Notes: a model not told the origin generated them from the sequence alone. DNA of 64,000 nucleotides from a virus (IMGVR_UViG_3300037067_027684:64001-128000), one strand, 5' to 3'. Shown: positions 15,124 to 61,559, counted from the stretch's first letter. Made by a program: numbers and translations.

Positions 15124-15329
15124 ATGAGTGACGAAGATACCATCAGGGCGGCTGTGAATGTCGTTGTGAAGTCGATTCTTGATATTCTACAAGAGGACCC
15201 CATAATTGGAGTGATAGACCATGTGATAGTTGTCGTGCTATTTCGACAATTATAGGTAGACCATTTGGTTGTTACGAATTTGCTCGACGCAGGGCAAACA
15301 AGGAACCTGGATTTGGATATCGAAAATGA
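15124..15329 (+). pseudogene. Small Cys-containing gene with a -1 frameshift at the C4 run (15198-15201)
   Basis: Frame 0 MSDEDTIRAAV..QEDP continues in the -1 frame as HNWSDRPCDSC..GRPFGC..YRK*, whose stop forms an ATGA overlap with the next gene. Confidence 0.55.
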
Positions 15330-16147
15330 AACATCGAGAAAGACGAGATGATTATCCCCCAAGCATTCAATATGAGCCTGGTAGTGTCTATGAAGGACCC
15401 GAGGGTGATGAATATCCCAATGATGATCCTGATGATTTTGAATTAGATCAAGAGCCACGTTTTGCTAAGCAAAATGTCCCATGGATTCGTGCTGGATGTG
15501 CTGGCTATGATGGTCACCCTAGTTCTTTCGCTGGATATAAGCCACATAAATGGGGATATAAATATTTAAATATCGGACCTTGTCGTGAGAGATTACGTAC
15601 TGACAAGCAAATGGTTGAGGACCATAAGAATCATGGTTTTTCATTTGGTTTAGAGGAACGTGCTTATGCGATGCTTTGGGATTATGAGAATAATGGTCAA
15701 TCAAGCCCAATACTATCATATTGGCTAAATTATCCAGAGATTCAGGCATTGATCAAGGATGGCGATGATGCTAAGTTGGCCGAGATGGTTGCTCAATGTT
15801 TCGCCCAATGGTTGGGTACAAACTGTGGTGGTAGTTTTCTACATTCCGCTGAGGCTTTGATTAAGAAAGAAAAGGAACGTATTAAAATATTGGTAGATCC
15901 TATTAAAGCCAAAGAGGAGAAGGATAAGGAGGAGAAATTTCAGAAAACTATTGATGAACAGAGGTTAGAACGCGCAAATGCGTTTCAAAAGCTACAAAAT
16001 GAGAAATTAAAGCTTGAAGAACGAGTTAAAGTGTTAGAACAAAGTCTTGAGAAGGAAGTTGAGAATGAGCTTGAACGTCGTAGGAGACGACATATTGATG
16101 AGATGAGTAAAATGGTTGAGGAAGGTGTTCGTTCTCTAGATATCTAA
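15326..16147 (+). CDS. Hypothetical coiled-coil protein ending GVRSLDI
   Basis: ATGA-coupled start; QWLGTNCG motif; E/K-rich tail. Confidence 0.6.
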   Translation: MKHRERRDDYPPSIQYEPGSVYEGPEGDEYPNDDPDDFELDQEPRFAKQNVPWIRAGCAGYDGHPSSFAGYKPHKWGYKYLNIGPCRERLRTDKQMVEDHKNHGFSFGLEERAYAMLWDYENNGQSSPILSYWLNYPEIQALIKDGDDAKLAEMVAQCFAQWLGTNCGGSFLHSAEALIKKEKERIKILVDPIKAKEEKDKEEKFQKTIDEQRLERANAFQKLQNEKLKLEERVKVLEQSLEKEVENELERRRRRHIDEMSKMVEEGVRSLDI

Positions 16148-16197
16148 TTGATTTCTGAACATGAAGAGATATCAATGAGTATTAGAAAGGATGGAAT

Positions 16198-17112
16198 ATG
16201 AAACATTTTTATCAGGCATGTGATTTTACTCCGAAATCGCTTGGGATTATCGCTCAAGCCAATGAGATTATTGAAGAGTATTCTGCTCAGGGTTTTAGTC
16301 TAACTCTGCGGCAGATTTATTATCAATTTGTGGCTCGTGGTTTTATTCCAAATAATAATAGGGAATACCATAATTTGGGATGTATTATCGATAAAGCTAG
16401 GTTAGCTGGTTTGATTGATTGGGACATGATTGAAGATCGCACTAGAAGTGTGCGTGGTAATGCTCATTGGGATAGTCCATCTGGAATTGTTGATAGTTGC
16501 GCTTATCAATATCGTCGGTGGTTGTGGTCAGACCAGGATTTCTATGTTGAAGTATGGATTGAGAAGGATGCTCTTGTTGGTGTTATTGATGGGGTCTGTA
16601 GAGACTGGGATATTAATTTCTTCTCTTGTCGTGGTTATACTAGCCAGAGTGCTATGTATCGAGCCGCTCAAAGGATTTTGTTACATGATAGACCCTGTGT
16701 GATTCTTCATTTAGGTGACCATGATCCTAGTGGTTTGGATATGACTAGGGACATTGGTGATAGGTTGCAATTGTTGACTGAGGGAGCTGATATTGAGGTT
16801 AAGCGTATTGCTTTGAATATGGATCAGGTTGATGAGTATGAGCCTCCGCCGAATCCCACTAAGTTTACTGATAGTAGGCGTCGTGAATATGTTGCTAGAT
16901 GGGGTAGTTCGTCTTGGGAGTTGGATGCTCTTGATCCTTCGGTTTTGGTTAGGTTGATTAATGACGAGTTGATGCAAGTAGTCAATTTGCAGAAATTTGA
17001 TCGCCAGAAGAAGAAACAGGAGGTTGAGCGCAAAATTCTGGAGAAGGTAGCTAAAGATTTGAAGAAGGACGAGAGGAATGAAAAGGATAGACTGCGTAAG
17101 AAAGTGCGATAA
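16198..17112 (+). CDS. Topo VI-A/JetD-like TOPRIM protein
   Basis: TLRQIYYQ (winged helix), VEVWIEKDAL, HLGDHDPSG, WELDAL. Confidence 0.75.
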   Translation: MKHFYQACDFTPKSLGIIAQANEIIEEYSAQGFSLTLRQIYYQFVARGFIPNNNREYHNLGCIIDKARLAGLIDWDMIEDRTRSVRGNAHWDSPSGIVDSCAYQYRRWLWSDQDFYVEVWIEKDALVGVIDGVCRDWDINFFSCRGYTSQSAMYRAAQRILLHDRPCVILHLGDHDPSGLDMTRDIGDRLQLLTEGADIEVKRIALNMDQVDEYEPPPNPTKFTDSRRREYVARWGSSSWELDALDPSVLVRLINDELMQVVNLQKFDRQKKKQEVERKILEKVAKDLKKDERNEKDRLRKKVR

Positions 17113-17598
17113 TGTGGCTCTTCAAAAGAAGGATTGTGTTGGTTGTAATCAGGTTCGACGTGTTGGTGATAAGGTGATTTTTGAGTCTAGCTATTTGGGT
17201 AGAGTCTTGGCTACCGTGGATGCCAAGGGTGGCTTATATGTAATTGGTGCTGAATTGGGTGACACAGATGAATAGGATGCTTCGATTGATCCTTGGGAGG
17301 CATGACATGGATGAGGATACTTTTCTATATAAGGCTCAGATTTTGAAGGAAGATCCTCGGATTTTGTGTTCTTCTCATTATGAATGGTTGGAGCATCCGA
17401 TATGTCAAGAGATTATAGCTGAGGGTAGGCGTGTTATTCCTTTTATTATGGAGGATTTCAAAAGAGATGGTGAGTTTCCTTGGGATGTTGTTCTTCAAAA
17501 TATTGTTGGTTTTTGTCCTTCGTCTGAGGAGCATCGTGGCTGCGTTGAGGCGATTAGGCAAGATTGGCTTAAGTGGGGTAGGGAGAAAGGTTATCTTA

Positions 17599-17883
17599 AT
17601 GATTAAGCATGGTGTTGTTCATCGTGGGGCTGTTCATCGTGGTGCTGTTCGTCGTGGTGATGTTGGCAATTATTGTAGGCAGTGTGGTGGTAGTGGGATT
17701 TTTAATAGTCGTGTTTGTCGGTTGTGCAAGGGTGATGGTAAGGTGCGTTGGACTGATTGTCTTAGGTGTGACAGGAAGATGGTCATGACGAATATATTTG
17801 ATAAGGTTTGCACTAACTGTAAGTGTAAGAAGGAAGATGTTTCTAGGCGTGCTGAGCATGAATATAGGGTGATTTTTGGATGA
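17599..17883 (+). CDS. DnaJ-type zinc-finger small protein with N-terminal HRGAV repeats
   Basis: CRQCGGSG and CRLCKGDG; 15-bp tandem units. Confidence 0.55.
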   Translation: MIKHGVVHRGAVHRGAVRRGDVGNYCRQCGGSGIFNSRVCRLCKGDGKVRWTDCLRCDRKMVMTNIFDKVCTNCKCKKEDVSRRAEHEYRVIFG

Positions 17884-18172
17884 ATTTAGGAAATCTTAAA
17901 ATTGTTGAGGTTTATTTGTACTATGATGGTCCTGCTTTGTTTCTTGCCGATGATTCGAAGAATTTATTTTTATCGTTTTGGGTTGGTGATTCGGTTTATC
18001 TATATATTCCTATTACTGAAGATCAAGTTAAGAATATCGACAAGTTGCTATTGAAATCTTTTATTCTTGGTAGGGAATATGTCTTTAGGGCTGTTGGTGA
18101 TGTTGTTTCTAAGATTTCTCCAGATGAACTATTAGAATCTGAACTTCCTGATGATGTGACTATTGCTACCAA

Positions 18173-18751
18173 CTAGGATACAACTACTGGACATAACGCT
18201 ACTTGCAGTCTTATAAACGTTGTTGTTGCCAATCCTTTATTTTGGAGACGTACCCTGAAAAATGAAGCAGTAGCTTGGGTGGTCCAACTTTTTCCGCCGA
18301 GGTTTGCATAGAAATTGAAGGTGTCAGTAATATCCCAAGCATATTGTGTAAAGGCCAAACCTCCTGCTATTGTGCCGAAAGCTGAAGTTACTGTTAGTGA
18401 TAGATCACTCGCTATTGCATTAATTACTCTTACAGTATCACCTGTCACCCAAATTTGGTCACCAACCTTTAGATCACGTAGGAATTTGGTTCCTAATCCA
18501 GTTAGTGTGGTCGTGCCATTTGTGGTTACTGTTCCAACGCCGGTTATGGTTCCATTTGATTGGTCAACGAACACAGTCAAGTTCTGGTCTGATATAATAT
18601 TGGTTTGGATTCCAACCACACCCAATGTGGATGTTGCGGTTCCAGCATATATGGCGTTAGTGGCTAGGTTAGCACCACCTCCAGGACCTACAGACAGTGC
18701 GTTATTATTGTCTGCTAGAACGTCTTGGAGAATTCTCTTCCAGTAGCTCAT
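18173..18751 (-). CDS. Beta-rich tail-fibre-like protein (possibly truncated)
   Basis: GTVTTNGTTTLTG.GTKF..DLKVGD.I..I.AIASD.SLTV module typical of fibre/baseplate proteins. Confidence 0.55.
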   Translation of the reverse strand: MSYWKRILQDVLADNNNALSVGPGGGANLATNAIYAGTATSTLGVVGIQTNIISDQNLTVFVDQSNGTITGVGTVTTNGTTTLTGLGTKFLRDLKVGDQIWVTGDTVRVINAIASDLSLTVTSAFGTIAGGLAFTQYAWDITDTFNFYANLGGKSWTTQATASFFRVRLQNKGLATTTFIRLQVALCPVVVS

Positions 18752-18761
18752 TTAGTTCTCC

Positions 18762-20876: not shown

Positions 20877-21625
20877 TATTGGCTCAACAATTGAATCCTA
20901 AGACCCACAATTCCCACACTCTCTGTCTGTGGATCAGGACTCCCTTGATAATTTCGATTGAGAAGTATATGGACGATATTGTTACTACCCACACTAATAA
21001 CGTCTAATAGTTCAGTCTCACGTACATCTCCCTCAATGAGATTCAATGTAGAGATGTTGGTGTCATTGACATATAATACTGGTGTTTCGCCAGTAGCAGT
21101 GGCAACATGTGCAGTCGTTCGAATGTCAAAAGTAGTGTTTACGCCACAAGTGAACATCCAAATTAAGGACACTACTATTCTACCATTGAATGTATCATTG
21201 GTTTTTAAATTATAACCAATCACTGACACATCAGTATCTGGCAGTAATAATACTATCTTGTCATTGATAACTGATCGAGTTCCACCGAACCAACTTTCAA
21301 GAGAGGTGGAGGGGACAAAGTCGCCGTCTAGATAACTGTGTTGTAGGGATTGGCTACCAATTAACCAATTAATATATTCCTGAAATCGTGGTCCTCGCTT
21401 CATTCCTGTGATTTGATTTAGGAAGGGCAGGGCTTCATCTGGTATGTCTAATTCAATAGTGTTAGTGTTGCGGTCATAGAAGGTTTCGAATTCGATTGTG
21501 TCGTTGTTGCTTAAAGCTAGTCTAGCGAATAATGCATGTAGAAATAAGTCATTCATAGCTGGGGGATTATTTTTAAATTTAACGGGTGGCTGTATACTTC
21601 TGAATACGTTGCTTCCCCTAGTCAA
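20876..21625 (-). CDS. Probable structural protein
   Basis: 249 aa, SD GGAGG, directly coupled to the fibre gene. Confidence 0.55.
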
Positions 21626-21637
21626 GATATACCTCCA

Positions 21638-22087: not shown

Positions 22088-22113
22088 CTAATATTTACCG
22101 TGTAATTAAAAAT

Positions 22114-22887: not shown

Positions 22888-23169
22888 TGGTGGCAATAAT
22901 CGTAGTCTAATCTCAGTTTTCTCATCTAGTGGCTTGATATCCAAATCTTTATAAGTGATTCGTCTAGCTTCAACCGCCCAAGCTTCATGCGACAATTCAA
23001 TTAATTCACCACCAACAATAACATGCCAGGAAGTCTCAATATCACTCTCTAACTCCTTTAACTTGGTTTCAATGTCCCTAAAAATACCCTGATAAGCTAG
23101 ACACTGCCGACTATCTGAGTCACGGCAAACAACTAGGCCACTATTGTAGAGAATGACCTTCCGAATCAT
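22879..23169 (-). CDS. Hypothetical protein
   Basis: SD GGAGG before ATG 23169. Confidence 0.55.
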   Translation of the reverse strand: MIRKVILYNSGLVVCRDSDSRQCLAYQGIFRDIETKLKELESDIETSWHVIVGGELIELSHEAWAVEARRITYKDLDIKPLDEKTEIRLRLLPPLE

Positions 23170-23192
23170 AGATACCTCCAAAGGAGATTCAA

Positions 23193-27188: not shown

Positions 27189-27732
27189 TGTCCTGTCCTT
27201 GTATGAAGTCCCTTTGTAAAACACCAGAGATTTCACGGAGTCTTTCGCCAATTTCTATGAATTTGTGGCGCTGTTCACCTTCTGGGTAGTTACCGGCTAG
27301 ATTCATCCATTGTTTAATAATGCCATCCAACTGTCCTTTTGCTTGATCCATAGTATAATTACTACCACTTGGCGTGCCAGGAATCTGTTCTTGTGGGGCT
27401 TGTTCTGGAGCTTGTTCTGGTGCCTGCTCTTGGGGAGCTTGTTCTGGAGCTTGTTCGGGAGTCCCCTGTGGTACATCTGCTGCATCTAACAAGCTGGCTA
27501 AGCTATCTTCTGCTTCACGGAGTAATTCATCGCTCAATGGAACTTTCTGACGTTTGAAATTCATGTTAATTGGTTTGGGTTGGGATACGCTTTGCCGTCC
27601 AGTTCTGATTTTGGATTTCTGTTGCCTGGGTTTGATTTCTTCTAATTCTGAACCTTGTCCTGCTAGGCGCTTATCAACTTTTTCTAGTGGAATTACCTTG
27701 CGTAATGCTTTGCCAAGTGCGTGGTCAAACAT
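27157..27732 (-). CDS. Hypothetical protein with EQAP repeats
   Basis: PEQAPEQAPQEQAP repeats; CAAAAATAAGTAAG upstream. Confidence 0.6.
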   Translation of the reverse strand: MFDHALGKALRKVIPLEKVDKRLAGQGSELEEIKPRQQKSKIRTGRQSVSQPKPINMNFKRQKVPLSDELLREAEDSLASLLDAADVPQGTPEQAPEQAPQEQAPEQAPEQAPQEQIPGTPSGSNYTMDQAKGQLDGIIKQWMNLAGNYPEGEQRHKFIEIGERLREISGVLQRDFIQGQDNAPAAAAATL

Positions 27733-27800
27733 TGGTATTCCCTCAATCTTACTTATTTTTGAATCTTTCGCATAAATATAAAAGAAGACGAGGGATCATC

Positions 27801-30161
27801 ATGGATCACATCACAACCGTTGAGTCATGTCGAATTTGTCACCAATCCAACTTTGAGACTGTTATTAATCTAGGTGATCAATATATTGCCAATGCTTTCT
27901 ATCGAAAGGAGAATCCGCCAGAAATCAAAGCACCATTACATTTAATGAGATGCATTAATTGTGGGTTAGTACAATTGGCTCACTCTATTAATTGTGATAT
28001 GATGTATAGGAATTATTGGTATAAATCAAGCATTAATCATACTATGCGTGAACACCTCCAACTCCTGGTGAAATCAGTTCTTGAGATTAAGCCGCTGAGG
28101 AGTGGTGATACAGTTATAGATGTTGGTTGTAATGATCAATTTATGCTTGGTTGTTACCCAAAGGATGCTAACCGTGTTGGTGTTGATCCTTCTAATGTTG
28201 CTAAATTGGCCCCACTTAATTGTAATATGTTAGTTAATGATTATTTTAGTGCTAAAGCATTGAATGATATTCCTAAGGCTAAAATTATTACTTCTATTGC
28301 GATGTTTTATGATTTAAATGATCCTAAGTCATTCGTACAGGATGTTCGGAAGTGTTTGGCTGATGATGGTATTTGGGTTCTGGAATTAGCTTATTTGCCT
28401 TTGATTCTTAGTCAGAATTGCTATGACACTGTGTGTGTTAAACCTGATACTACGATACTTGGTAGTAATAAGAAGATTGTTGATTTGACCTCTCAAGATT
28501 ATGCTTTAAATGAAAATGGAGTTCTGGTTAAAATATCCAAGAGAATGGAACGAACGTTTAATGGTAATCTTATTAAAATCAGACCGCGATATCTTGAATC
28601 AATTTCTATTACTGCTGAGCATCCAATTAAAATTGTAAAGAAGGAAACAATTAAATTCAATTGTGGTCAGTTTAGACGCAATCAAAAAGAGCATAAGTTC
28701 GAATGGGTTCAAGCGAGTAAAGTTCGTGTTGGCGACTATATGGTAATTCCAAGATTGAAAGAAGGAAAGAGGATAACTGAGGTCAACCTCAACAAATTCA
28801 ATCAAACAGAAAGCAAGAATTATAGATTTGGATTGAAATCGATACCATTAAATAAGGACACTGCTTGGTTATTTGGTCTTTATGTCGCAGAAGGATATGT
28901 TGGTGGGAAGAAAACTAATCGCAACATAGAATTTAGTCTCAATATTACTGAGGAAAGTTTGTCAGATCGAATTAATGAAATTACTAAAACTTTTGGTTAT
29001 AAATCACATGTTACTTTTACTAAAGGTAGAAATACCAGAACAGCGAAAATAACGTGCGCCGCACTCGCCAGATCATTTAGAGAGTGGTTTGGAGACAAGG
29101 CCAATAGAAAGAAAATCCCAGATTTCATAATGACTGCTCCAAAAGACATAAAAATTGCGTTTTTACGTGGTTTGTTTGTTGGTGACGGATTTATAGATGA
29201 AGAAATAAATCAAGTTCATTATCATACTTCGTCTAAAGTATTAGCTTTACAGGTGCAATTAATGGTTGCTTCTTTGGGTGGTATGCTAGGCATTAGTTAT
29301 GTGAAACCTTATCCTAGAACAATTAGAGGTCGTGATGTTCACACTGGAGATTCTTGGCAATTAAGAGGCAGGTCCAGGATTTTAGCCGAAATTTTTGATT
29401 ATAAGTATACTAAAGGCGTTGGTGAATGCGAACATAATTATATTCTCAAGGATGATTATGTTTTAATACCAATTATGGATGTCGGAGTTGAGAAATATAA
29501 TGGTAAGGTTTATAACATAGAGACTGATACTCATACATATTTGGTTTCTAATGCTGTAGTTCATAATTGTCATGAGCATGTGTGCTATTATTCTCTTACT
29601 ACTTTCGAATTGACATTGGTTGGGACTGATTTAGAAGTTTTTAAGATCGAGAAGAATAATACTAATGGCGGTTCATTCAGGTTATATGTTGCTCCGAAAG
29701 GTTCCCATAATATTGGTCCTGAGGTTCAGTTGGTTAGGAATAATGAGAAGGAATTGGAGTTTGATAAACCATATCGTGAGTTTGCTCAAAGGATTACCGC
29801 TAGTAAGAATCAGTTGATTTCGTTCTTGAAAGAACAGAAGCGTTTGGGTAAGAAGGTTTATGGTTATGGTGCTTCGACTAAGGGCCAAGTTACGATGCAA
29901 TATTGCGAGATTACTTCTGATTTGATTGTTGCGGTTGCTGAGCGTAATCCTGATAAATATGGTTTGTATACTCCTGGTACGAATGCTAGGATTTGTTCTG
30001 AGGAAGAGATGAGGAAGGCTAGGCCAGACTTCTTGGTTATCTTCCCATGGCATTTCCTAGAGGAATTTGTTGTTCGTGAGCGAACGTTGCTCATGGATGG
30101 TACTAGGTTTGTGGTGCCATTGCCAAAGTTTGATGTGATTTACTGGCAACATTCGGGGTGA
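27801..30161 (+). CDS. NDP-hexose C-methyltransferase, intein-containing
   Basis: CRIC..L.RC.NCGLVQL zinc site, VIDVGCND, SIAMFYDL, YDTV|CHEH..YYS, NGGS, GYGASTKG, FPWHF. Confidence 0.88.
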   Translation: MDHITTVESCRICHQSNFETVINLGDQYIANAFYRKENPPEIKAPLHLMRCINCGLVQLAHSINCDMMYRNYWYKSSINHTMREHLQLLVKSVLEIKPLRSGDTVIDVGCNDQFMLGCYPKDANRVGVDPSNVAKLAPLNCNMLVNDYFSAKALNDIPKAKIITSIAMFYDLNDPKSFVQDVRKCLADDGIWVLELAYLPLILSQNCYDTVCVKPDTTILGSNKKIVDLTSQDYALNENGVLVKISKRMERTFNGNLIKIRPRYLESISITAEHPIKIVKKETIKFNCGQFRRNQKEHKFEWVQASKVRVGDYMVIPRLKEGKRITEVNLNKFNQTESKNYRFGLKSIPLNKDTAWLFGLYVAEGYVGGKKTNRNIEFSLNITEESLSDRINEITKTFGYKSHVTFTKGRNTRTAKITCAALARSFREWFGDKANRKKIPDFIMTAPKDIKIAFLRGLFVGDGFIDEEINQVHYHTSSKVLALQVQLMVASLGGMLGISYVKPYPRTIRGRDVHTGDSWQLRGRSRILAEIFDYKYTKGVGECEHNYILKDDYVLIPIMDVGVEKYNGKVYNIETDTHTYLVSNAVVHNCHEHVCYYSLTTFELTLVGTDLEVFKIEKNNTNGGSFRLYVAPKGSHNIGPEVQLVRNNEKELEFDKPYREFAQRITASKNQLISFLKEQKRLGKKVYGYGASTKGQVTMQYCEITSDLIVAVAERNPDKYGLYTPGTNARICSEEEMRKARPDFLVIFPWHFLEEFVVRERTLLMDGTRFVVPLPKFDVIYWQHSG
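28434..29567 (+). mobile_element. Intein with LAGLIDADG homing endonuclease (378 aa)
   Basis: Starts CVKPDT, block B ITAEHP, LFGLYVAEG and FLRGLFVGDG, ends VYNIET..VVHN|C. Confidence 0.92.
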
Positions 30162-33859: not shown

Positions 33860-35582
33860 GAAAGATTACTTCGTTGACTTTCAATTATAATGGGAATATT
33901 GTGTTTACTGATAATTCTAGTCATGTGTTTGCTGTGGTTTATGATGGAGTTCATGATGGGGAGCAGTTTCAGAAGTTGATTGGTAAGAGTTTTGATGATT
34001 TGAAGGAATTTATTAAAGCTTGGATTCCTGATATTCAGTCTTTGACTGCTGCGAAATCTAAGAAGGTTGTTTCTTCTTTTGCCTTGAATTTATATGGTAA
34101 TGTTTCTTTTGACGATGGGACAGTGGATGGTTTTAGTTTCGAATATCATCCTGATCATGGCCTAATTGAGCACATGTAGTATTTCTTTTAATATCTTTTG
34201 AATTTTTAGATTGAGCCTGTGCGATAGCACATAGCAGACACGATTTTAATCTCCTTAGAACCTCGATAGGAAACCCTTCGGAGGAAGAGAATGAACATCT
34301 TTAGGACAGAATCGAAAATCCAAACAGAATCAGGAGAGACTTTCCACGAAGGAAAGTGGGATCGTCTTACGCCGTTTATGACTGCTGGTGGTCTTATTTT
34401 GACCGAATTGACTGACAACGAGTTTGATGGTGTTCTTAATCTGGGTGATTCTCTTGATCCTCTTGGTTTACGCGGATATATGGTTGCCTTACATGTTGAG
34501 AATCCGAGTGAGGACGATCCAAAATCTGTTAATCTTGCCGCTCTGCCTGCTAAGGATCAGATTTTAAGGCATCAAGATCGGTATTATTTGGTTAAGGTTG
34601 TGGTCCAGAGTAGTAGTTGTGGTATTGCGGTTTATGTAAAGCGTTTGTCTCGATTGGAGTTGTCTGGTTTTCTAAGATAGGAGCAGACATGTGTCCTGAA
34701 TGTGAGTTGAAGGATAAGCGTATCGTTGAGCTAGAGGCTGAATTAAAACAGTGGAAATGGAAGTGTGAAGATGTGTTGTTGACATTGTCGGCCATTCAAG
34801 TGGCCATTTGTGATTTTAAGGTTCGGGATTCCTGCGCGAAAGCTGATGGGTCAAGGACGAACTTATGAGCTTAGGCCAGATCGTTTTGAATGTACTCTTG
34901 AAGAGTGTCCTCATGGGTTATTTGTGCATTTTGTCACTAAGGATGAACCAATTTTTGGCTTCAAGACAGAATATGGTGATTGTGAGTGCTTTGTTGTGTC
35001 ATCTGGTGAGAAATTTTGTAGTCGTTCCGCTGGTGATGCGACTCCTGTTCCATTGAAAAAGTTAATGGTGGTGCCTGTTGTGATTTCCAAATGCGAGAGA
35101 GAATGCGTATGAGAATTCTTGGTGATAGACAATTAGTTTTCGACATTGTTGAAACCAAGGCACCGTCTGGGGAATCTTGTGTTTCGGTTACTATATGCGG
35201 TATTACTGCTAAAGTGCCCAATTGTCCCTATCTTATGAGTGTTACATTTAACAATACCCCAGATGGATATCAAGAACCCTATTTCTGTATGAGGCATCTT
35301 GAAACTAAGAGAGTTCTTGGTTCTGCTTTCACACTGGAAGAATCAAATATCGGTATTTTCGCAGCTATAGCTGCTGCTGAATGGCGCAAGAATGGTAATA
35401 TAGCTGAGGCTGATGCGTGGCAATCTATTTATAATGTTTTGGGGAACATTCATCAGATGACTGAGGCTGTTTATTAACATATGGTTTGTGAGACGATCCA
35501 ACTAAGAATTATCAATCCTATTAGGTATAGGATGAATTTCTCGTCTTCTGTTATGATGACTTCCCCGTAGGGAGGTTTGACT

Positions 35583-46460: not shown

Positions 46461-47186
46461 ATGCAATTGCAAGGCTTCACAACCTACTTGAAGGATGACC
46501 AATATTGGTCTTATAAGGTTCGTAGTGATGTTGAATTGGAGATTGAGAAGGGTACTTTACAGGGTGGTTTCGATAATGTAATTTGGCCTTTTAATTGTCG
46601 AGCTGAATTGGACAAATGGCTTAGAAAGAATATCACTCGATGTGTTAAGTTGGGTTTCAAATTAGCTGCTGAGAGTGTTGTTGAGTCTAAGTCGGATGAT
46701 GCGTTACTGTTGGGTCAAGGTGTGTCGATTGTTGGTGTTCATTGGGTTGATAGGTTTGCTGTTGATGAGTTCAGGGATGTTGGGCGTGATTTGAGATTTT
46801 TGAAGGAATATGATCCGAATGGTTTGATTTTGGTAGAGGTTCTGAATCGGGGTATTGTGAGTTTCTTCCTTTTGTCTAAGAAAGAATCTTGGATTTTGGT
46901 TAATGCTGAGCGTAATGGTACTGATTTGAAGTTTGAGGGTGCGGCTCCTAGTTTCTTTTATCCTGAGGCGTTGATTTTTATTAGTAAAACTAGGTCCCTT
47001 CTAAGGAGGTTTTCGCATTTCGTTAGGAAGCGTGTTAAGAAGGCTGGTTATGAGATGGGAAATTTGTCTTTGTTTGATGGCGTTGATGTTAGTGATGCGT
47101 CGATGGTTCGGGTTTTCTCTACTGAGATTGGTGAGCAGGTACAGAAGCAGTTTAGGGATTTGGGTGACAGAGTTTTGTCTTTATAA
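46461..47186 (+). CDS. Degenerate WGR-like protein, paralog of 60831-61559
   Basis: Shared HWVDR/QWVAR, YDP..LVEVLN/YEP..YVEILN, LLSKKES/ILSKTES and LGDRVLSL/LGERMLEL. Confidence 0.65.
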   Translation: MQLQGFTTYLKDDQYWSYKVRSDVELEIEKGTLQGGFDNVIWPFNCRAELDKWLRKNITRCVKLGFKLAAESVVESKSDDALLLGQGVSIVGVHWVDRFAVDEFRDVGRDLRFLKEYDPNGLILVEVLNRGIVSFFLLSKKESWILVNAERNGTDLKFEGAAPSFFYPEALIFISKTRSLLRRFSHFVRKRVKKAGYEMGNLSLFDGVDVSDASMVRVFSTEIGEQVQKQFRDLGDRVLSL

Positions 47187-52998: not shown

Positions 52999-55900
52999 AT
53001 GGCTGAAAAGAAGACTGCTGCTGTTGTTGAGTCGCCAACTGAAGCACGGATCATTAATTACATCAAAGCGGCCTACCCAATTCTGTGGCTGCAGACTGCG
53101 GAAGAGTCTCGTGCTGAACGCGAACTCCTCAATATCGCCAAGAAGATGCAACGTCGGATTTCGGTGTGGAGTTTCACCGAAGGATTCCTCAACCTGCAGG
53201 AAGATGGCAAGGAATCCCGCGCCTCTGGCGATGCTTCCTCTGAAGATCCTATTGAAGCTCTGAAGAAGATCAAAGACGAGGCCGCTAATGTTGGCCAAAT
53301 CTACATCTTCCGTGACCTTCATGCGTTCTTCAACAATCCGAAGGTTGTCCGATTGCTTCGGGACATTGCTCGTGAATTCAAGCAGGGCAAGAAAGTGCTG
53401 GTCGTTCTCAGTCCGTTGAATAAGCTGCCGCCTGAGGCGGAGCGTGACATCACCTTGGTTGATTATGGACTCCCGAATCGTCCGGTTATCACCAAGATTT
53501 GGGATAACATGTACGCCAAGAACAAGACTGGTATCGTGAAGACCAATGGCGATAAGGAATTTTCTGCCGATGAACATGAGAAGATTTCTCAGGCTGCTCT
53601 TGGTCTTACGACTGTCGAAGCTGAAAATGCTTTTGGTAAGGCTGTGATTGAGTGGGCGGCTCTTCCGATTGAGGATCGGCCTACCATCAGTTCTCTGGTG
53701 ATGAAGGAGAAGGCTGCTGCGGTCAAGAAGTCTGGTATTCTGGAATATTTCGAGCGGCGTGAGTCTATCAAGGATATTGGTGGCCTTGAGGCTCTTAAGA
53801 GTTGGCTGGATGTCCGCAAGCGGGCTTTGTCGCTCTCTGCGCGGGAATTCGGCTTGCCGATGCCTCGTGGTATTCTGCTGGTGGGGTTGCCTGGTTGCGG
53901 TAAGTCCTTGGTTGCTAAGGCTACTGCTGGTATTCTGGGCGTGCCTCTAATCCGTTTCGATATTGGCCGCGTGTTTGCTGGTCTGGTCGGTCAGTCTGAG
54001 ATGAACATGCGTTCTGCTCTTCAGACGATTGACGCTATCGGCAATTGTCTTACCGGTGATACTCAGGTAACGATGAAGGATGGATCTCTCCTTCAGATCG
54101 ACCAAATTAAGGTTGGTGATGAAGTTGCTTGTGTTGATGAGAAAACCGGCAAGATCACTACAACCAAGGTAATTCATGTTCAATCTCGTCGTAAGGATAC
54201 CATTCGTCTCTCGAATAAGAGTGGTGATTCGGTAACGGCGACTTTGGATCATCGGTTCCTTGTCCTCACTGATGGTGAAATGGTTTGGAAGCAAGCCTCT
54301 GAATTGAAGATTGGTGATTTGGTTGGTGTGCCTGTGAAACTTCCTTTCAATAAGGATGTGTCTGTTTTGGATCTGCTTCCTAAAGAGGCTAGGATCTATG
54401 GCGTTGATCGTTCTGATAAGAGGGTGCCTGCCTACGTTCGTTGTGATTCGGAGAAATATCCTGACCCATTCATGAATAAGTGCCTTATGACCAAAGATGA
54501 ATGGCTCTCGAAAGACAAGCATCGAGTTTCTACAGGCGCTGGTCTTTATCTCTCTGAAGTTACTGTGCCATCTCGGATTTCAGAGGAAATGTGTTATGTG
54601 GCTGGTCTTGTGGCGAGTGATGGTCATATTGGTGGTCGTCATGTTGGATTCACCAATAGTCAGAAATTGCTTCATGAACCAGTTAGGAACTTCATGAAGA
54701 GTCTATTGCTGAATCCTGTGACTCGGGAATCATTGGCTGATTCCAAATACGAATCATACAAACAGTTGTCTGGGATTTCTGAAAATCCCAGCCTTGCTGT
54801 GATCGAAGAGACTAAGACTTGTGGTAAGCTTTTTAGCCAAATCTTCAGGGCTTTACAGGAAAAGTTGCTTACATTAGACCCTGATCTTCTTCGTTGGTGG
54901 TTGGCTGGCTATGTAGATGGCGATGGTTCTACATCGCTTCCTCAACATCCTGAGAAGATTGTCATTTGCTCTAAGAAGAGCAAAAATGCTCAGCTTGTTC
55001 GTGAAGTAATTCGAAGGTTGGGCATCATTCCTCCTAAATGGGATGGAAAGGCAATTGAGGTTTCTGGGCAACGCGCTAGAGATCTCGCTATTATGTTGAC
55101 TAATAAGGTTAAGACGCCTTGGAAGTCTGACAACATCAAGAGTATCATTCGTTCTGAGAAAGTCGCTTCTAGTCGTGATTCTGGGTTTAAGGTTGGTAAG
55201 AAACTCAAGGCACTTAGAAAGAATGCTGGAATCAAATCGACTGCAATGTCAGTTGGTTCTGGCTCGATTTCTCGCGCCGAAAGTGATGTTTCGATTTGTG
55301 AACAAACCCTTAGTCGTATTAATGACGATCTGAAGGGTTCTTTCGATTATCTCCTTAATTCTGATGTCCGATGGGTACCAATTACCAAGCTTGAGGAAAT
55401 TGGTGAAGAGACCGTCTACGACATCAGTTGTGAGGGCGATAATACTCATAGCTTTATTGCGAATGGGATTGTTGCACATAATTGTGTCGTCTGGATTGAC
55501 GAAATGGAGAAGGCGTTCGCTGGCATGGGTTCGTCCAGCACGACTGATTCTGGTGTTAGCCAGCGTGTCTTCGGTTCTTTGATCACGTGGATGCAAGAGA
55601 AGAGCAGTCCTTCGTTTATGGTCGCCACAGTGAACCGAATCGAAGGTCTTCCTCCGGAATTGCTCCGTAAAGGTCGCTTCGATGAGATTTTCTTTGTCGA
55701 TCTGCCGACTGCTAAGGAGCGTCAGGAGATTCTCAAGATTCATCTTGAGAAGGATCGTCGTACTGAGGAGTTCCAGGATGGCGCTTGGCGTTATAAGTTC
55801 GATGAGGTTTTCAAGAATAAGTCTGAACTTGAGAACTGCATTTCTGCTTCTGAGAACTTCAGCGGTGCTGAACTAGAGGAAGCAATCGTGACTGCTCTCT

Positions 55901-56103
55901 ATACGGCTTATTACCGTGATGATAAGGCGGCTGATAAGTTCGGCCTGTACATCTACGGGGCGATCCAGAACACTCGTGCTCTGGCTAAGACGAATGAGGG
56001 CCAGTTAAAGGCGATGAAGACGTGGGCTGAGAATAATGCGGTCCATGCTTCGATCAAGGCTGGTACGAAGAAGGCTGACGCTCGGACGTTGGATATTGGT
56101 TAA
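52999..56103 (+). CDS. Ycf46-like AAA+ ATPase, intein-containing (555-aa extein)
   Basis: T.EE.RA N-domain, KKSGILEY, IGGLEALKSWL, Walker A GLPGCGKS, Walker B VVWIDE, LPPELLRKGRFDEIFFVDLP. Confidence 0.9.
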   Translation: MAEKKTAAVVESPTEARIINYIKAAYPILWLQTAEESRAERELLNIAKKMQRRISVWSFTEGFLNLQEDGKESRASGDASSEDPIEALKKIKDEAANVGQIYIFRDLHAFFNNPKVVRLLRDIAREFKQGKKVLVVLSPLNKLPPEAERDITLVDYGLPNRPVITKIWDNMYAKNKTGIVKTNGDKEFSADEHEKISQAALGLTTVEAENAFGKAVIEWAALPIEDRPTISSLVMKEKAAAVKKSGILEYFERRESIKDIGGLEALKSWLDVRKRALSLSAREFGLPMPRGILLVGLPGCGKSLVAKATAGILGVPLIRFDIGRVFAGLVGQSEMNMRSALQTIDAIGNCLTGDTQVTMKDGSLLQIDQIKVGDEVACVDEKTGKITTTKVIHVQSRRKDTIRLSNKSGDSVTATLDHRFLVLTDGEMVWKQASELKIGDLVGVPVKLPFNKDVSVLDLLPKEARIYGVDRSDKRVPAYVRCDSEKYPDPFMNKCLMTKDEWLSKDKHRVSTGAGLYLSEVTVPSRISEEMCYVAGLVASDGHIGGRHVGFTNSQKLLHEPVRNFMKSLLLNPVTRESLADSKYESYKQLSGISENPSLAVIEETKTCGKLFSQIFRALQEKLLTLDPDLLRWWLAGYVDGDGSTSLPQHPEKIVICSKKSKNAQLVREVIRRLGIIPPKWDGKAIEVSGQRARDLAIMLTNKVKTPWKSDNIKSIIRSEKVASSRDSGFKVGKKLKALRKNAGIKSTAMSVGSGSISRAESDVSICEQTLSRINDDLKGSFDYLLNSDVRWVPITKLEEIGEETVYDISCEGDNTHSFIANGIVAHNCVVWIDEMEKAFAGMGSSSTTDSGVSQRVFGSLITWMQEKSSPSFMVATVNRIEGLPPELLRKGRFDEIFFVDLPTAKERQEILKIHLEKDRRTEEFQDGAWRYKFDEVFKNKSELENCISASENFSGAELEEAIVTALYTAYYRDDKAADKFGLYIYGAIQNTRALAKTNEGQLKAMKTWAENNAVHASIKAGTKKADARTLDIG
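54046..55482 (+). mobile_element. Intein with LAGLIDADG endonuclease (479 aa), inserted just before Walker B
   Basis: CLTGDT, ATLDHRF, VAGLVASDG, LAGYVDGDG, VYDIS..FIANGIVAHN|C. Confidence 0.93.
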
Positions 56104-56155
56104 ACTCAACGAGGACGGGGTAGCATTTGGCTACCCTTTTAGAAAGGAATAAAAG

Positions 56156-57124
56156 ATGCCTAGTTTTTCCAAGCAAATGCTTTTGGGTCTCTATCAGGAA
56201 GAGAATACTCGGTTCGAAATTCTTGGATATATGTGTTGGTGGAATATCCGTAACGTGCAGTTGACCCAAAGTCAGTTCGGAAAGATGTTGGAGGATTGCG
56301 GTCTGAATCGGAAGTATGCTCGCACGCACAATTATCGGTCTGCTTTCATCCGTGCTCTCCGGAATTTGGAGGAGCAGCGAATTATCCGTAAGGTCGAGGA
56401 AACTGATCGATATTTGGTCTATCAGTTCACGGCTGAGCAGAAGATTAGTGAAGGTCAGACTGCTGAGTTGGAATATGATCAGGAGACAATTGTTGTTCTC
56501 GATAAGGAGTCTTATTATAAGGATCAGGATTTCCTTAAATCTCTGGTCAAGGGCCGTGAGGATATCCGACAGGCTGTGGCTTCGCATTTTGAGCGTGAGC
56601 GTGTTGCTTATTCGTCTTCTGATATCACTCGTTATGTTCAGAAGATCATGGGCGATCAGGCTGATTATGTGAGTATGCGTGAGCAGGGTTGTTTGTACTT
56701 TGTGCCTGCTGGTTTTCAGGGTACGGTTAGTGCTTGTGAGCGGTTGGTCCAGATGCTTGGTGGTGGTTCTCGTTTCGATTCGATGCCTGTTCCGAATGTT
56801 CAGGCGAATCGGATGATGGTTGGTGCTGCTGCTACTGATGAGTTGCGTCGGTTGTATGAGAAGTTGGCTGTTGAGGTTAAGGCTTCGGTTGATACTGCTA
56901 CTGATAAGTGGACTGAGGGTAAGTTGGTTGAAGTGCGTTCTATTCTTGCTCGTATTGGTATGTATGGTGATGTGATGAAGGAGAAGGAGCGTGAGAGTTT
57001 GGTTAATGATTTCTCTGCTCTTGAGAAGGAGTTGTTCCCTGATCGTGAGTTGGATTTGACTCCTGTAACGGAGACTCCGGTGGCAGAGCCTAAGAGTGCT
57101 GAGGCTGCTGCGACCCCTGTCTAA
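56156..57124 (+). CDS. DUF6744/DUF3150-like protein
   Basis: LGY.CWW.I, AF.RA.R.L, R.QG.LYFVP; directly follows the AAA gene. Confidence 0.45.
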   Translation: MPSFSKQMLLGLYQEENTRFEILGYMCWWNIRNVQLTQSQFGKMLEDCGLNRKYARTHNYRSAFIRALRNLEEQRIIRKVEETDRYLVYQFTAEQKISEGQTAELEYDQETIVVLDKESYYKDQDFLKSLVKGREDIRQAVASHFERERVAYSSSDITRYVQKIMGDQADYVSMREQGCLYFVPAGFQGTVSACERLVQMLGGGSRFDSMPVPNVQANRMMVGAAATDELRRLYEKLAVEVKASVDTATDKWTEGKLVEVRSILARIGMYGDVMKEKERESLVNDFSALEKELFPDRELDLTPVTETPVAEPKSAEAAATPV

Positions 57125-57129
57125 GGGGG

Positions 57130-57198
57130 ACTCCCTAGAGAGGGGAGTGATTGCCACTATCATAGTAGGGGAGGAGCGGGTGTTCCGCTCCTCCTCCC
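57130..57198 (+). promoter_or_regulatory. CTCCC-N16-TGCCA motif plus downstream GC hairpin
   Basis: ACTCCCTAGAGAGGGGAGTGATTGCCA; GGAGGAGCGG/CCGCTCCTCC. Confidence 0.6.
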
Positions 57199-58176
57199 AT
57201 TCTAAGGAGATTTGAAATGATTAAGTCCGTGAAGGAAGTTGAAGATGCGATGGTTGAGTCTGTAGTTCAGGTCCTTCATCCCAATGGGAATCAATATTTT
57301 ATTGCTCAGACGCGTGGCGAAGTTCAGCCCGCTTATTCGCGCAAAGTACGAACTGCTGCTTTTGTTAAGGTTTATGGGCGCAATCCAGAGAACGATGTGG
57401 AATTGTTCAGTAACACACCGATTATGTTCACTCCTGGTGTTTTGGAACTGGAGTGAAAGGAGGAATCATGAGTAAGGCTGAGCAACAGCGCAAGCATGCT
57501 TTCCGTCGCTCTAGGGAGCGTGTTGAGGGTAAAATTACTCAGAATGATTATGTTCAGATCATCAAGATGATTCAGACTGGTAAGGCTTGTTTTCTTGAAC
57601 GTCAATCGAATCGTGTTACTTTGTGGATTCTTGTTTATAGGGATGAGCCTGTTCGGGTTGTTTATGATAAGGTGCGTAGTCAGGTTGTATCGTTCCTTCC
57701 GATTGAGGAGGAGCATTTTAACAAGCTTGAGGCTTGGGAGGAGAAGAGAAATGTACAAAATACAATGGCGCAGGCAGTGGTCCCAAACTCTAACTGATGG
57801 GTTGTCGAAATATCCAAGTCTTGAGGCGGCTAATCACCAAGTTGTGATTTGGCAATCAATTTTCCGAGATAATGAGTACTTTGTGATTTTAGGAGATTAA
57901 CATGGTAGTAATGACCAATCCGCCAGATTCCACAACTCCGCAAGAACAGTTGGTTGGAACTAATATTCCTGAATTCTTCGCTAGTCTAAAGATTGCTGCT
58001 TCTACCGCTATCGGCTATAGTTGGAGGCCGGTTATGGTGTTTCGAAATGAAGAGAACAAGCGTGAATTTATAGCCGTTGATAAGAAAGACGTTCAGATGT
58101 TTCGCTCCACTCACAAAAAGTGGAGAAGAATTGTTACGGTGACACCTCACATTTTTGAGAAATAGGAGGCTAAGCA

Positions 58177-58452
58177 ATGCCTTGTTTCACTTTGGTGCAA
58201 GTCGAGGTTAAGGATAAGGTGATGGCAGAGAGGGCACTCAAGAAGATGGGTGCCAAAGCCTCCATTGAGAAGAATGCCAATGGGACTTATACTGTGACTC
58301 CCGCAAAGCAGGATGCCTCATTCCGAGACACCTTCATGTCTGAATATGCCGCGCAGGTAGCCACGGCTAAGGCTCAGGCGGATGGCTACACAGTTACACG
58401 TCAAGAAGTTGATGGTGAAACTGTCCTCTATTTGAGGGATTATTCGTCATGA
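58177..58452 (+). CDS. DUF1257 (Ycf35)-like protein
   Basis: MPCFT.V.VEVKD....RAL.KMG..F..EYA.......A...GY.V...E.DG...L.L. Confidence 0.55.
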   Translation: MPCFTLVQVEVKDKVMAERALKKMGAKASIEKNANGTYTVTPAKQDASFRDTFMSEYAAQVATAKAQADGYTVTRQEVDGETVLYLRDYSS

Positions 58453-59576
58453 AGAAAAGTAATGTCATGAAAACACACATGCATGCTCCGCCTGAACAAG
58501 TGAAGCTGGTCAAGGACTTTCTGAAGCACACAAAGAAACACACAATCTCGATTTTCTCAGAGGATTGGTGTAGACATTGGACTAAGTATTCCAAGTCGAA
58601 TTATCTTCGATTGATTACTTTGCTTAGGAAAGTCTATAGCCCAGTTGATCTATACGACCACAATGATGAGTTTAAGGCAGTTCTCATTATCATGGGTGTT
58701 AGGTTGGCATGGGGAATTCATGCTAGTCGTGCATATAGGTATGCTTATGTTCAGCGTTATGCTTTAGACGCGGGGTGCGAATACACAATTTTGTCTAATC
58801 ATGATTTTTCAAAGATTGATCCCAATTACCCATGGGAGAATTGGGATATCTTCCTAAAGGAGTGAAAAATGAAAATTTTGCTAGCCCCTAACAAAGATGC
58901 AGTTGGTACTGGCACACTTGATTTCTGCCATACAACTCCAGGCGAATTACTTGTGGTTTCTTCTTCTAGATGCTCCAAGGGCACTGTTGAGGATGAATGT
59001 GGTTGTCATCGCTCGATGACTGGAACTCAATCAAAGAAGGGCACAACAATTGGTATTGTTGCTGAGATGCCTGAAGGTGAGGTTATGAAATGGGTTAAAC
59101 ATCGCTCTGACAATTATTATTCCAAAATCGATGGTGCATCAGATGAATTAAAGAACCATTTAACAGCATGGACCATGCGTGAGCTTAAGCTAATTGCCGA
59201 TGATATTAGTGAAATTCCTGTTGGTTCGCGTGTTGGTTTCGCTTTTACGAATAGCACAATCGATATCTTCCGCGCTGGTGAGCGCAAGAAACATGGGGTG
59301 TAAACATGGATTTCGATAAAATGACGGAGCTTACTGATAAGATGGAGGTAGAGATTAGAGAGCTTAACCATTTGTCCAAGGCTTGTTTGACACTTGGCCT
59401 ACATGATTTGGCCGACAAACTAGCATGCTCTGCCGTGGAATTAAACAATATTTCCCACGACTTTAAAGTTACTGTCGTAAAAGATTTGGATCAACGTTAT
59501 AAGCAGGCGCAGCAGTTCTCTGCTACTGTTCTGGAGGCTACCTTGACAGGAATTGCCCTTGGGAAGGAGGCTCCAA

Positions 59577-59771
59577 ATGAAGCAAGTAATCGTTAAAATT
59601 GGGAAAGGTGGTCGAACCAAGATTCTTGCTGAAGGGCCACTTGGTGCTGGTACTGAGAAGTTTACAGCTGAGTTGGCTAGGGATCTGGGTACTATCCAAG
59701 AGCGACATGCAGGCTGGTTCCACACACACAACGAACAACATACTCATGTAGAGGGACACGTCCATGATTGA
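59577..59771 (+). CDS. DUF2997-like protein 1
   Basis: MKQVIVKIGKGG.TKI.AEG..G....FT.ELA.DLG...ERH. Confidence 0.55.
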   Translation: MKQVIVKIGKGGRTKILAEGPLGAGTEKFTAELARDLGTIQERHAGWFHTHNEQHTHVEGHVHD

Positions 59772-60423
59772 TGAAGATAAGGAAATTGAGCATCCGTCAT
59801 TTGGTTTGATCGGTCTTGCTCGCACTTCTGGTGGTGCTAAATTGTTTGGGTCATCGGTTGACCATCACAATTATATTAGTCTTACGATTAGCCGAGCTAA
59901 GTTGGTTCGTGGTTTGCATCATGATCATTACTACTCTACGGAGGATATTATTGAGGTTGCTTTGTCGCCTAATCAATTGAGTGAATTGCTGATGAATATG
60001 AATGTTGCCGAGGGGGTTCCGTGTACACTTCATCGTATTCTTGTTGACGGGGTGTATCAAATGGTCCCTCAGCCTGATGAGGTTAGTTCGTCTACTAAGA
60101 CTTATGTTGATGAATTTAAGGAGCGTATGGCTAAGCTGGCTGAGCAGGCGGCTAGTTTGATTTCTCATGCAAGGTCTGTGGCTGAGAAACCCACTGCTAA
60201 TAAGACTGAGCGTCGTGAGTTGACTCATGAGTTGGAAATGATGGTTCAGGAGTTGAAGAATAATATGCCTTTCGCTCTTGAGAGTTATATTGAGCAGGTT
60301 GAGAAGGTTGTTACTCAGGCTAAGTCGGAGATTGAGGCTCATCGGGTGGCGATTGGTGGTACTGCTACGGTTAATCCCAAGTTGCTTGCTTTAGGGGAAT
60401 CTAAGGAGGTTAAGAATGCGTGA
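59764..60423 (+). CDS. Conserved-looking phage hypothetical protein
   Basis: EHPSFGLI..R..GG..LFGS, EV.LS..Q..EL..MN..EGVPCTL. Confidence 0.65.
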   Translation: MIDEDKEIEHPSFGLIGLARTSGGAKLFGSSVDHHNYISLTISRAKLVRGLHHDHYYSTEDIIEVALSPNQLSELLMNMNVAEGVPCTLHRILVDGVYQMVPQPDEVSSSTKTYVDEFKERMAKLAEQAASLISHARSVAEKPTANKTERRELTHELEMMVQELKNNMPFALESYIEQVEKVVTQAKSEIEAHRVAIGGTATVNPKLLALGESKEVKNA

Positions 60424-60595
60424 GATTAAGATAGTGATTTCTAAAGGTGGAAAGCTTAAGATGCTGGATAAGGATGGCACTTCGGCTCAATTTACCGAGA
60501 AGTTGGCCAAGGAACTTGGTCAAACTGAGGAGCGTCATAAAGGAGGAAATTACACTCAAAATGAGCAAAACACGGAAATCCAACAAGGCCATTAA
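60416..60595 (+). CDS. DUF2997-like protein 2 (not in ORF track)
   Basis: MREIKIVISKGGKLKMLDKDGTSAQFTEKLAKELGQTEERHKGG..; SD AAGGAGG; clear paralog of 59577-59771. Confidence 0.7.
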   Translation: MREIKIVISKGGKLKMLDKDGTSAQFTEKLAKELGQTEERHKGGNYTQNEQNTEIQQGH

Positions 60596-60830
60596 GTGGC
60601 CGTCTCGGAAAGAGATTCGAGATAAAATGATCAAAGACTGTCCTCAACTAGCTGCTATTCCTCCTTCTGCCTTTAATTTCTATACTAAGGACGAGTGGGC
60701 AGCGATGGAGACAATATTCAGGTTGAAGGTTGAACAACCTAATAAATTCCAGAGGATAATTGATATCGTCAAGGCGAAACACTCGTCAGAAATCAAGTAA
60801 GGAGTGGATAGAACTCTAAGGAGAAAAAGA

Positions 60831-61559
60831 ATGCCGACCTACATCTGCAAAGAACATGAGGACCGAGGTGAAGCAACCAATGCATTCTGGAAATATGAAC
60901 TTGAAGGAAGTACAGGAGTAACGATCCGGTTCGGTCGGATTGGTTTAAAAGGACAGGAAGTCAAGAAATCTTTTGATAGCCAATCTGCACGTGACAAATA
61001 TGTCAATGATAAAATCCGTGAGAAAACCCGTCACGGCTACCAACTTTCCAATGAGGAAACATTGGCGAAGGAGACACAGACGGCTAAGGAGCTTGGGACT
61101 CAGTATAAGATTCGCCGCATTCAGTGGGTTGCTAGGAAGGGTTCTAAGCTTAATTTCATTCTCAACTATGAGCCTACGCAATGGGTTTATGTTGAGATTC
61201 TGAATTCTTGGAAGGGTGACGTTACTCGTCTGATTCTCTCCAAGACTGAATCCCTTCAGATTGAGGGCACTGCTGAGTCTAACCGAGTCATTGAGTTTGA
61301 TTCTGTGCAATCTGCTCCGTCTGATTTCGCAAAGGCTGTGCGCAATTATTTGCGGAGTTTGGCTAAGAAGGTTGTGGCTGTCGCTCAGAAATTTGCAGCG
61401 ATGGGCAACCGTGCGTTGGATTTGGGGTTTGGTGATTCGGATGATGAAGAGCCTACACAGCAGGCTGCGGATCTTTACGAGCAGGTTGCTGAATCTGGGG
61501 CTACTGCTCAGGTCATTTCGAAGTTCGGTGGACTTGGTGAGCGTATGTTGGAGTTGTAG
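60831..61559 (+). CDS. WGR-domain protein
   Basis: NAFW.YEL....V.IRFGRIG.KGQ...K.F.....R.K....I.EK...GY. Confidence 0.8.
   Translation: MPTYICKEHEDRGEATNAFWKYELEGSTGVTIRFGRIGLKGQEVKKSFDSQSARDKYVNDKIREKTRHGYQLSNEETLAKETQTAKELGTQYKIRRIQWVARKGSKLNFILNYEPTQWVYVEILNSWKGDVTRLILSKTESLQIEGTAESNRVIEFDSVQSAPSDFAKAVRNYLRSLAKKVVAVAQKFAAMGNRALDLGFGDSDDEEPTQQAADLYEQVAESGATAQVISKFGGLGERMLEL

Follow-up and report, generated by a model that had tools for sequence, protein, structure and literature searches.

Tagged genes in the window

Short peptides with the core R-x-L-[DES]-[LI], here termed tags, recur at the ends of proteins encoded by a large phage, the single-contig virus record IMGVR_UViG_3300037067_027684 (246,684 bp), which is classed as a provirus in IMG/VR and estimated by CheckV to be 91% complete. 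The window, meaning the whole stretch of 64,000 nucleotides that was analysed, comprises bases 64001-128000 of this record, and positions are counted from its first letter unless stated otherwise. Its genes lie nearly all on the + strand, on which G exceeds C. They include an AAA+ ATPase gene split by an intein, genes for tagged proteins of several families and, between the ATPase gene and that of a tagged WGR-domain protein, one DUF1257-like and two DUF2997-like small genes, all three of which lack the tag. A sequence-only reading made beforehand had quoted the tagged endings of five proteins in the window, all of which are present as described; a further carrier that it did not include, the gene at 35091-35477, has the tag at its N-terminus and starts MRERMRMRILGDRQLVFD. 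The features concerned are as follows.

15326-16147, + strand: 273-residue protein with no Pfam family at the curated cut-off and a coiled-coil C-terminal part
16118-16144, + strand: C-terminal tag EEGVRSLDI of the preceding protein, from its translation
35091-35477, + strand: 128-residue protein not assigned to any Pfam or PHROG family, tagged near its N-terminus at 35115-35141 (ILGDRQLVF)
46461-47186, + strand: full-length paralogue of the WGR-domain protein (BLASTP against that protein)
47157-47183 and 47052-47078, + strand: terminal tag DLGDRVLSL and decayed internal copy EMGNLSLFD of the paralogue, from alignment of the tails
52999-56103, + strand: Ycf46-like AAA+ ATPase (COG0464) interrupted by an intein, with an apparently two-domain fold like that of p97 and Rix7 (Pfam, phrog_8638)
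54046-55482, + strand: intein with Hint and LAGLIDADG domains, 479 residues, ATPase residues 350-828 (Pfam; intein-less orthologue)
56074-56100, + strand: tail tag ADARTLDIG of the ATPase
56156-57124, + strand: DUF6744 protein (Pfam, E 1e-20)
57035-57058, + strand: tag FPDRELDL of the DUF6744 protein, followed by a 21-residue tail rich in Ala, Pro and Glu
58177-58452, + strand: DUF1257-like small protein, untagged, a candidate receptor component (weak Pfam match; family from iterated profile searches)
59577-59771, + strand: DUF2997-like small protein, copy 1, untagged, a candidate receptor component (iterated profile search, alignment)
60416-60595, + strand: DUF2997-like small protein, copy 2, untagged (iterated profile search, alignment)
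60804-61559, + strand: WGR-domain protein (Pfam WGR, E 1e-12)
61398-61427 and 61530-61556, + strand: internal tag AMGNRALDLG and terminal tag GLGERMLEL of the WGR protein

Form and enrichment of the tag

The core extends into a longer peptide, E-[LMI]-G-[DE]-R-x-L-[DE]-[LI], often with an additional Gly when it is not situated at the extreme end of the protein. A scan of the six-frame translation identified about 20 carriers in the genome, six of them inside the window. Around 12 bear the tag at or near the C-terminus, for instance as ELGDRDLEL, ELGERQLILEG, EIGDRKLIMEGN, EPGERHLEL or DLGCRQLEI immediately before the stop codon, and eight bear it at the N-terminus, examples being MELGDRTLDLGV, MELGDRTLDIGE, MPELGDRELDLGV, MGELGDRKLDFGE, MEQLGERKLAFEE and MELGNRTLILDD.

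Enrichment was assessed on the 1228 six-frame open reading frames (ORFs) of at least 50 residues in the whole 246,684-bp genome, using 100 within-ORF shuffles as the control. In 12 ORFs the pattern R.L[DES][LI] ended no more than five residues from the C-terminus, compared with 1.74 in the shuffled set (maximum 7 in 100), a terminal frequency far above expectation in a comparison that had been set as a check beforehand. Interior matches occurred at the level of chance (28 observed, 24.8 expected). The longer form G.R.L.[LIFM] was enriched at both ends of proteins, with 11 C-terminal matches against 1.06 expected and eight N-terminal matches against 1.74, and the two reversed-motif controls gave only one C-terminal match each, again the chance level. 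Codons differ at synonymous sites between copies of the tag, indicating that selection acts on the protein rather than on a DNA repeat or a regulatory site; an origin of the tag as a DNA repeat was ruled out on the same ground.

The tag has the properties of a short linear motif. It is eight to nine residues long, the tails that carry it are modelled with a predicted local distance difference test (pLDDT) below 50-65 beside confidently modelled domains, and the linkers preceding it vary while the tag itself is retained. It is also portable, being found on AAA+, WGR, DUF6744, GHKL and HhH proteins; on the GHKL ATPase it is an add-on, and distant DUF6744 members lack it. A position-specific scoring matrix built from the ATPase tails ranked the phage tags poorly, because in the phage tags the Gly is one residue further from the Arg (G-[DE]-R as opposed to G-R), and was replaced by regular expressions. 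When the degenerate pattern G-x-R-x-L-x-[LI]-stop was searched in the DNA of five related large phages, the counts equalled those of the backwards control and few extra plausible carriers emerged. In Pfam and PHROG searches with ten further tagged proteins, a GHKL ATPase alone was recognised.

Conservation in the tagged families

Retention of the motif in orthologues was the other check set beforehand, and distant orthologues of all five proteins conserve the tag. In large phages whose ATPase is 46-53% identical to the one in the window, the ATPase, the WGR protein and the DUF6744 protein all retain it. Homologues of the 15326-16147 protein at 30-33% identity end GGRRIIEV, preceded by a segment of differing length; those on record begin at the position corresponding to the ATG at 15326, in agreement with the gene start assigned earlier. 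The gene directly upstream of this one (13071-14771) encodes a 566-residue protein with a weak match to sigma-70 region 2 (E 8e-5), slightly under the Pfam cut-off.

The protein encoded at 46461-47186 had been taken to represent a separate family, but is instead paralogous to the WGR protein over its full length (25% identity, BLASTP E 2e-15), so that the five proteins constitute four families at most rather than five independent cases. Its internal GNLSLFD, noted earlier for its likeness to a sliding-clamp motif, falls in the alignment exactly on the internal tag of the WGR protein and represents a decayed tag. Throughout this family, as represented by eight orthologues and paralogues, there are always two copies, arranged as KFAAxGxRxLxL, an acidic linker and a terminal KFAxLGxRVLxL. 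The AlphaFold2 model of the WGR protein places both in the low-confidence C-terminal part that follows two confident domains.

In the DUF6744 family, the tag forms the very end of 23 of the 37 closest representatives, and in several others a short acidic tail comes after it, as it does in the window; none of 70 distant members has it. The GHKL-type ATPase (HATPase_c_3), encoded outside the window at 137359-139089 of the genome (locus L083), is tagged through an added stretch of some 20 residues at its N-terminus. Only its nearest relative shares the tag, although one homologue at 37% identity starts MRELDL; most of the other homologues examined start directly at the catalytic domain, and a few have other short extensions. 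The absence of the tag from most of these homologues shows that the peptide has been gained and lost as a terminal add-on.

An intein-split ATPase of the Ycf46-like group

The gene at 52999-56103 encodes an AAA+ ATPase of the classic clade, in the Ycf46-like group (COG0464), on the evidence of its full-length homology, its Walker A and B motifs and its lid. Pfam recognises an AAA domain (E 9e-22) together with intein domains, and the protein matches phrog_8638 over residues 3-541 (E 1e-132). The search for homologues returned 1181, named in their sources as members of the SpoVK/Ycf46/Vps4 family, and in the alignment the motifs GLPGCGKS and WIDE are invariant. A screen with the PADLOC models of defence systems gave nothing beyond a generic AAA similarity to IetA.

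The intein interrupts the protein between ...AIGN and CVVWIDE, immediately ahead of the Walker B strand. Its boundaries are fixed by an intein-less orthologue (P0006) of 555 residues, encoded on a 250-kb contig, and the 99% identity of the two proteins implies that the insertion is recent or polymorphic. A second intein-bearing gene in the window, at 27687-30161, encodes a C-methyltransferase (Methyltransf_13/14/23) split by intein-splicing and LAGLIDADG domains.

The AlphaFold2 monomer model of the ATPase has a mean pLDDT of 84.6. Foldseek aligned about 575 columns of it with the D1-D2 region of p97, Cdc48 and Rix7, at template-modelling scores of only 0.4-0.6 and 17-19% identity. The first domain has no Walker A motif and no Pfam AAA match and is at best a degenerate D1, which gives the model the appearance of a p97-type ATPase whose first ring is degenerate. 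The tail is modelled at a pLDDT below 50 and is not docked in cis. Together with the flexible position of both copies in the WGR model, this would fit a short linear motif that binds in trans.

In 103 of 120 ATPase homologues the protein ends with R-x-[LIVM]-x-hydrophobic no more than five residues from the terminus, typically as A-G-R-Q-L-[DE]-[LI], also summarised as G-R-x-[LI]-[DEQ]-[LIF], and preceded by a variable, low-complexity linker; several of the exceptions are fragments. The tag is thus the signature tail of this ATPase family. These tails do not conform to the HbYX pattern (hydrophobic residue, Tyr, any residue) of proteasome-docking tails, as they end [DE]-[LIF] and Tyr is rarely the last residue.

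Tagged neighbours in other genomes

The ATPase family is widespread in bacteria and present in some archaea, and the tail is present on roughly one in three of 79 cellular copies. Tagged neighbours, 27 proteins in all, were found in 18 bacterial and further viral loci, at a frequency roughly three times higher beside tailed than beside untailed ATPases, and the untailed ATPases with a tagged neighbour mostly have decayed or truncated tails. In one rumen bacterium, seven HhH-type paralogues end E-R-x-[LIV]-D-[LIF]; six of them, each ending E-R-x-[LIV]-D-[LI], form a tandem array just upstream of the ATPase gene (contig L167:3561-7350, + strand), most encoding proteins of around 210-235 residues, with the tailed AAA+ gene, DUF1257 and DUF2997 next. 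An HHH_3 domain lies just before the tag in the bacterial tagged neighbours, including both of the two members of the rumen array that were scanned.

Cultured organisms and phages with tagged proteins include Dactylosporangium roseum, in which a neighbour of the ATPase ends G-R-V-L-D-F, Clostridium peptidivorans, Rhizobium phage RHph_I4 and Mycobacterium phage Corndog, whose gp96 ends VRVLDL and whose gp95 has GRAIDF and GYALDF near its end. Similarly, in Microbacterium helvum the neighbour ends G-R-R-V-D-Y and the ATPase G-R-T-V-D-Y. In actinophage-like loci, the gene for a conserved protein of roughly 115 residues, which starts M-P/A-C-D/E-T, ends HSHDGGxTWH and has no Pfam match, comes after those of the AAA+ protein and its tagged neighbour (L006:8729-9070, which is Corndog gp93; L018:12508-12855; L036:6523-6870). 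This protein may take the place of DUF1257 and DUF2997.

DUF1257 and DUF2997 families were delineated by iterated hidden Markov model (HMM) searches, seeded in the former case with an annotated DUF1257 protein and in the latter with proteins annotated by their records or by Pfam; the DUF1257 family comprises 78 ORFs from AAA-linked loci. In cellular loci, one or other of the two was found near all 18 tailed ATPases and near 12 of 34 untailed ones. Both DUF2997-like copies in the window lack a Cys that almost all sequences in the family alignment share, and they differ in their C-terminal ends, that of copy 1 (59577-59771) being rich in His and that of copy 2 (60416-60595) rich in Gln, Asn and Glu with few His.

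A possible address tag and its alternatives

It is fairly probable, in our judgement, that the tag serves as an address tag for a p97-like AAA+ machine made up of the Ycf46-like ATPase, DUF1257 and DUF2997. Counted towards this reading are the enrichment of the tag at protein ends, its conservation and portability, its place in disordered tails and its association with ATPase loci, together with the p97/Cdc48/Rix7-like fold of the ATPase and the docking tails known from that group, members of which dock partners through C-terminal tail motifs. The ATPase and its working partners, namely the WGR and DUF6744 proteins in large phages and the HhH proteins in bacteria, would share one common binding site. 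Were the ATPase hexameric, as is typical of its fold relatives, its own tails would present six copies of the tag per ring, while the WGR protein would offer two and the other carriers one each. A receptor for the tag might be sought in DUF1257 or DUF2997, which as conserved but untagged partners are the most obvious candidates, in the degenerate D1-like domain of the ATPase or in the ATPase pore. In this phage the tag has spread to about 20 proteins, which would accordingly act with the machine as its cofactors or clients. Given that WGR and HhH domains are nucleic-acid binders, the favoured arrangement is one in which tagged adaptors would bring the ATPase to DNA-bound targets, although the tagged proteins may instead be its substrates. 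A bolder version, in which the tag is the address code of a machine widespread in bacteria, archaea, plastids and phages, onto which a jumbo phage has rewired some 20 of its proteins, DNA-binding adaptors among them, is conceivable and was not found described for any phage, though we lean slightly against accepting it in full.

Several observations weigh against an address tag of this kind. The association of the tail with DUF1257 and DUF2997 is not significant on phylogenetically independent pairs, of which the tree affords seven contrasts, and a large group of tailed actinophage-like loci has neither family detectable by the HMMs or Pfam. In the monomer model the undocked tail indicates no site on the ATPase itself. 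The pore-1 loop reads Leu-Val-Gly in the alignment and is not aromatic, which makes threading activity uncertain. Both the binding and the receptor are putative and, as most of the roughly 20 carriers are without a known function, 'client' is a label for them, not a finding. A complex prediction with ATPase residues 1-540, DUF1257, DUF2997 and a 60-residue WGR tail scored 0.01 (mark 0.32) and bears neither way.

The same observations can be read differently if the tag is a degron-like signal, with the ATPase gripping the free ends of substrates to unfold or extract them and its own tail acting as a regulatory pseudo-substrate. This overlaps with the address-tag reading and differs in making the tagged proteins substrates, not cofactors. 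ClpX recognition signals occur at N- or C-termini, much as the tag does on flexible ends of either kind; the ATPase folds like p97, Cdc48 and Rix7, which thread substrates; and many of the tagged proteins are small and without known function. However, the conservation of the WGR and DUF6744 proteins and their synteny with the ATPase over large distances better fit stable cofactors, the two copies kept in the WGR protein suggest avidity for a multi-site receptor, and the pore-1 loop lacks the usual aromatic residue; a degron appears unlikely. Alternatively, the tags could bind one another, or a hub outside the AAA+ module such as a capsid or packaging receptor or a host factor, the ATPase being just one carrier. 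A receptor within the module has been placed only at the level of candidates, most of the carriers are encoded far from the module, and a precedent exists in encapsulins, relatives of phage capsids whose cargo is loaded by means of terminal peptides. Yet across phages, bacteria and archaea the tag is constantly accompanied only by the ATPase, with its family-wide tail, and an ancestral role in virion packaging is hard to picture for tags beside HhH proteins on bacterial and archaeal assembly contigs (possibly prophage), leaving an outside hub distinctly improbable.

The sequence-only reading had described a short linear docking tag and had offered a sliding clamp as one possible hub. The former part of that description is supported by the sequences, in that the motif is terminal, acts at the level of protein, is portable and conserved, and is tied to the AAA+ module. 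The latter part, whereby the tag would bring the ATPase and DNA-binding WGR and HhH proteins to the beta clamp of the host, now seems very unlikely. Many ATPase tails do read R-Q-L-D-L and so contain the first four positions of QL[SD]LF, known clamp motifs also lie at N- or C-termini, and domains that bind nucleic acids occur among the carriers (WGR, HhH and a GHKL ATPase). The invariant residue, however, is not Gln but an Arg one residue upstream of it, the Gln-equivalent position being free in the phage, where S, V, T, M, E, D, K, H and Q all occur. In addition, C-terminal copies stop at the fourth position, before the final Phe of QL[SD]LF, clamp motifs have nothing equivalent to the conserved E-L-G-[DE] that lies upstream, and GNLSLFD is a decayed tag. 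No DnaN domain was detectable in the phage genome by a search that was positive in 10 control genomes; a search for gp45-type clamps was uninformative, its control being silent. No carrier was recognisable as a replisome protein in the Pfam and PHROG searches, and the bacterial tags were seen on neighbours of the ATPase, in a survey that left out replication proteins. It is scarcely credible, finally, that the similarity reflects chance or the plain common descent of the carriers. Two of the five carriers are indeed paralogous, and the seven rumen HhH proteins probably are too, but the enrichment far exceeds that in shuffles and reversed controls, unrelated folds (AAA+, WGR, DUF6744, GHKL and HhH) share the tag, it occurs at both termini, and it is an add-on in families that otherwise lack it.

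Comparison with known systems

Tail motifs are familiar from related ATPases: that of p97 is bound by cofactors with PUB or PUL domains, and the HbYX tails of PAN, Rpt subunits and archaeal Cdc48 dock on the 20S proteasome. The present case resembles these in that a p97-like AAA+ protein has a disordered linker ending in a short, conserved, docking-type peptide, and resembles the PUB case further in that there, too, unrelated proteins carry the ATPase-tail motif and share one receptor. It differs in its sequence, R-x-L-[DE]-[LI] without Tyr, in occurring also at N-termini and internally before Gly, and in extending to about 20 proteins; a receptor of the PUB, PUL or 20S-like kind was not found, proteasome genes not having been searched for. 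Similarly, in the MIT-MIM interaction of Vps4 with ESCRT-III, different proteins share a short terminal peptide that addresses one AAA+ ATPase. There, however, the ATPase holds the receptor, the MIT domain, whereas here the motif is on the ATPase, which has no MIT-like domain and begins instead with a degenerate AAA domain. The beta-clamp motifs QL[SD]LF and QLxLxL are likewise short terminal peptides with alternating Leu on several unrelated proteins; unlike QL[SD]LF, the tag has no terminal aromatic residue and is linked to an AAA+ module.

The gene content of the locus recalls cyanobacteria and algal plastids, in which the Ycf46, Ycf35 (DUF1257) and DUF2997 families also occur together. A DUF2997-ycf35-fed7 gene cluster has been noted (PMC4284462). 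Unlike the phage protein, many cellular ATPase homologues, including the Pseudanabaena copy, end ...R-x-R-P-A-S without a tag; the other cyanobacterial ATPase sampled, from Okeania, ends QRLEF, a shortened form that the pattern used did not count as a tail. The literature found on DUF1257, DUF2997, DUF6744, ycf35 and ycf46 consists of plastid gene lists and expression studies, with no mechanism, tail motif or tag network found in it, nor the WGR, DUF6744 or HhH partners. A tail motif common to an AAA+ ATPase and its partners is a known kind of mechanism; what appears to be undescribed is the particular motif, the machine and the extent of tagging in a single phage.

In cyanobacteria, plastids, many bacteria and phages, the genes for Ycf46, Ycf35 (DUF1257) and DUF2997 have long been orphans, and the shared terminal tag offers a first concrete handle on the partners of this ATPase. 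It allows candidate partners to be named in each genome directly from sequence and predicts a single docking site, which could be tested with a nine-residue peptide. In this phage, it would group about 20 hypothetical proteins into one functional set.

Elsewhere in the window, positions 4681-5832 contain a gene of the TnpB type, with OrfB_IS605 and Cas12f1-like TNB domains, lying within the phage genome.

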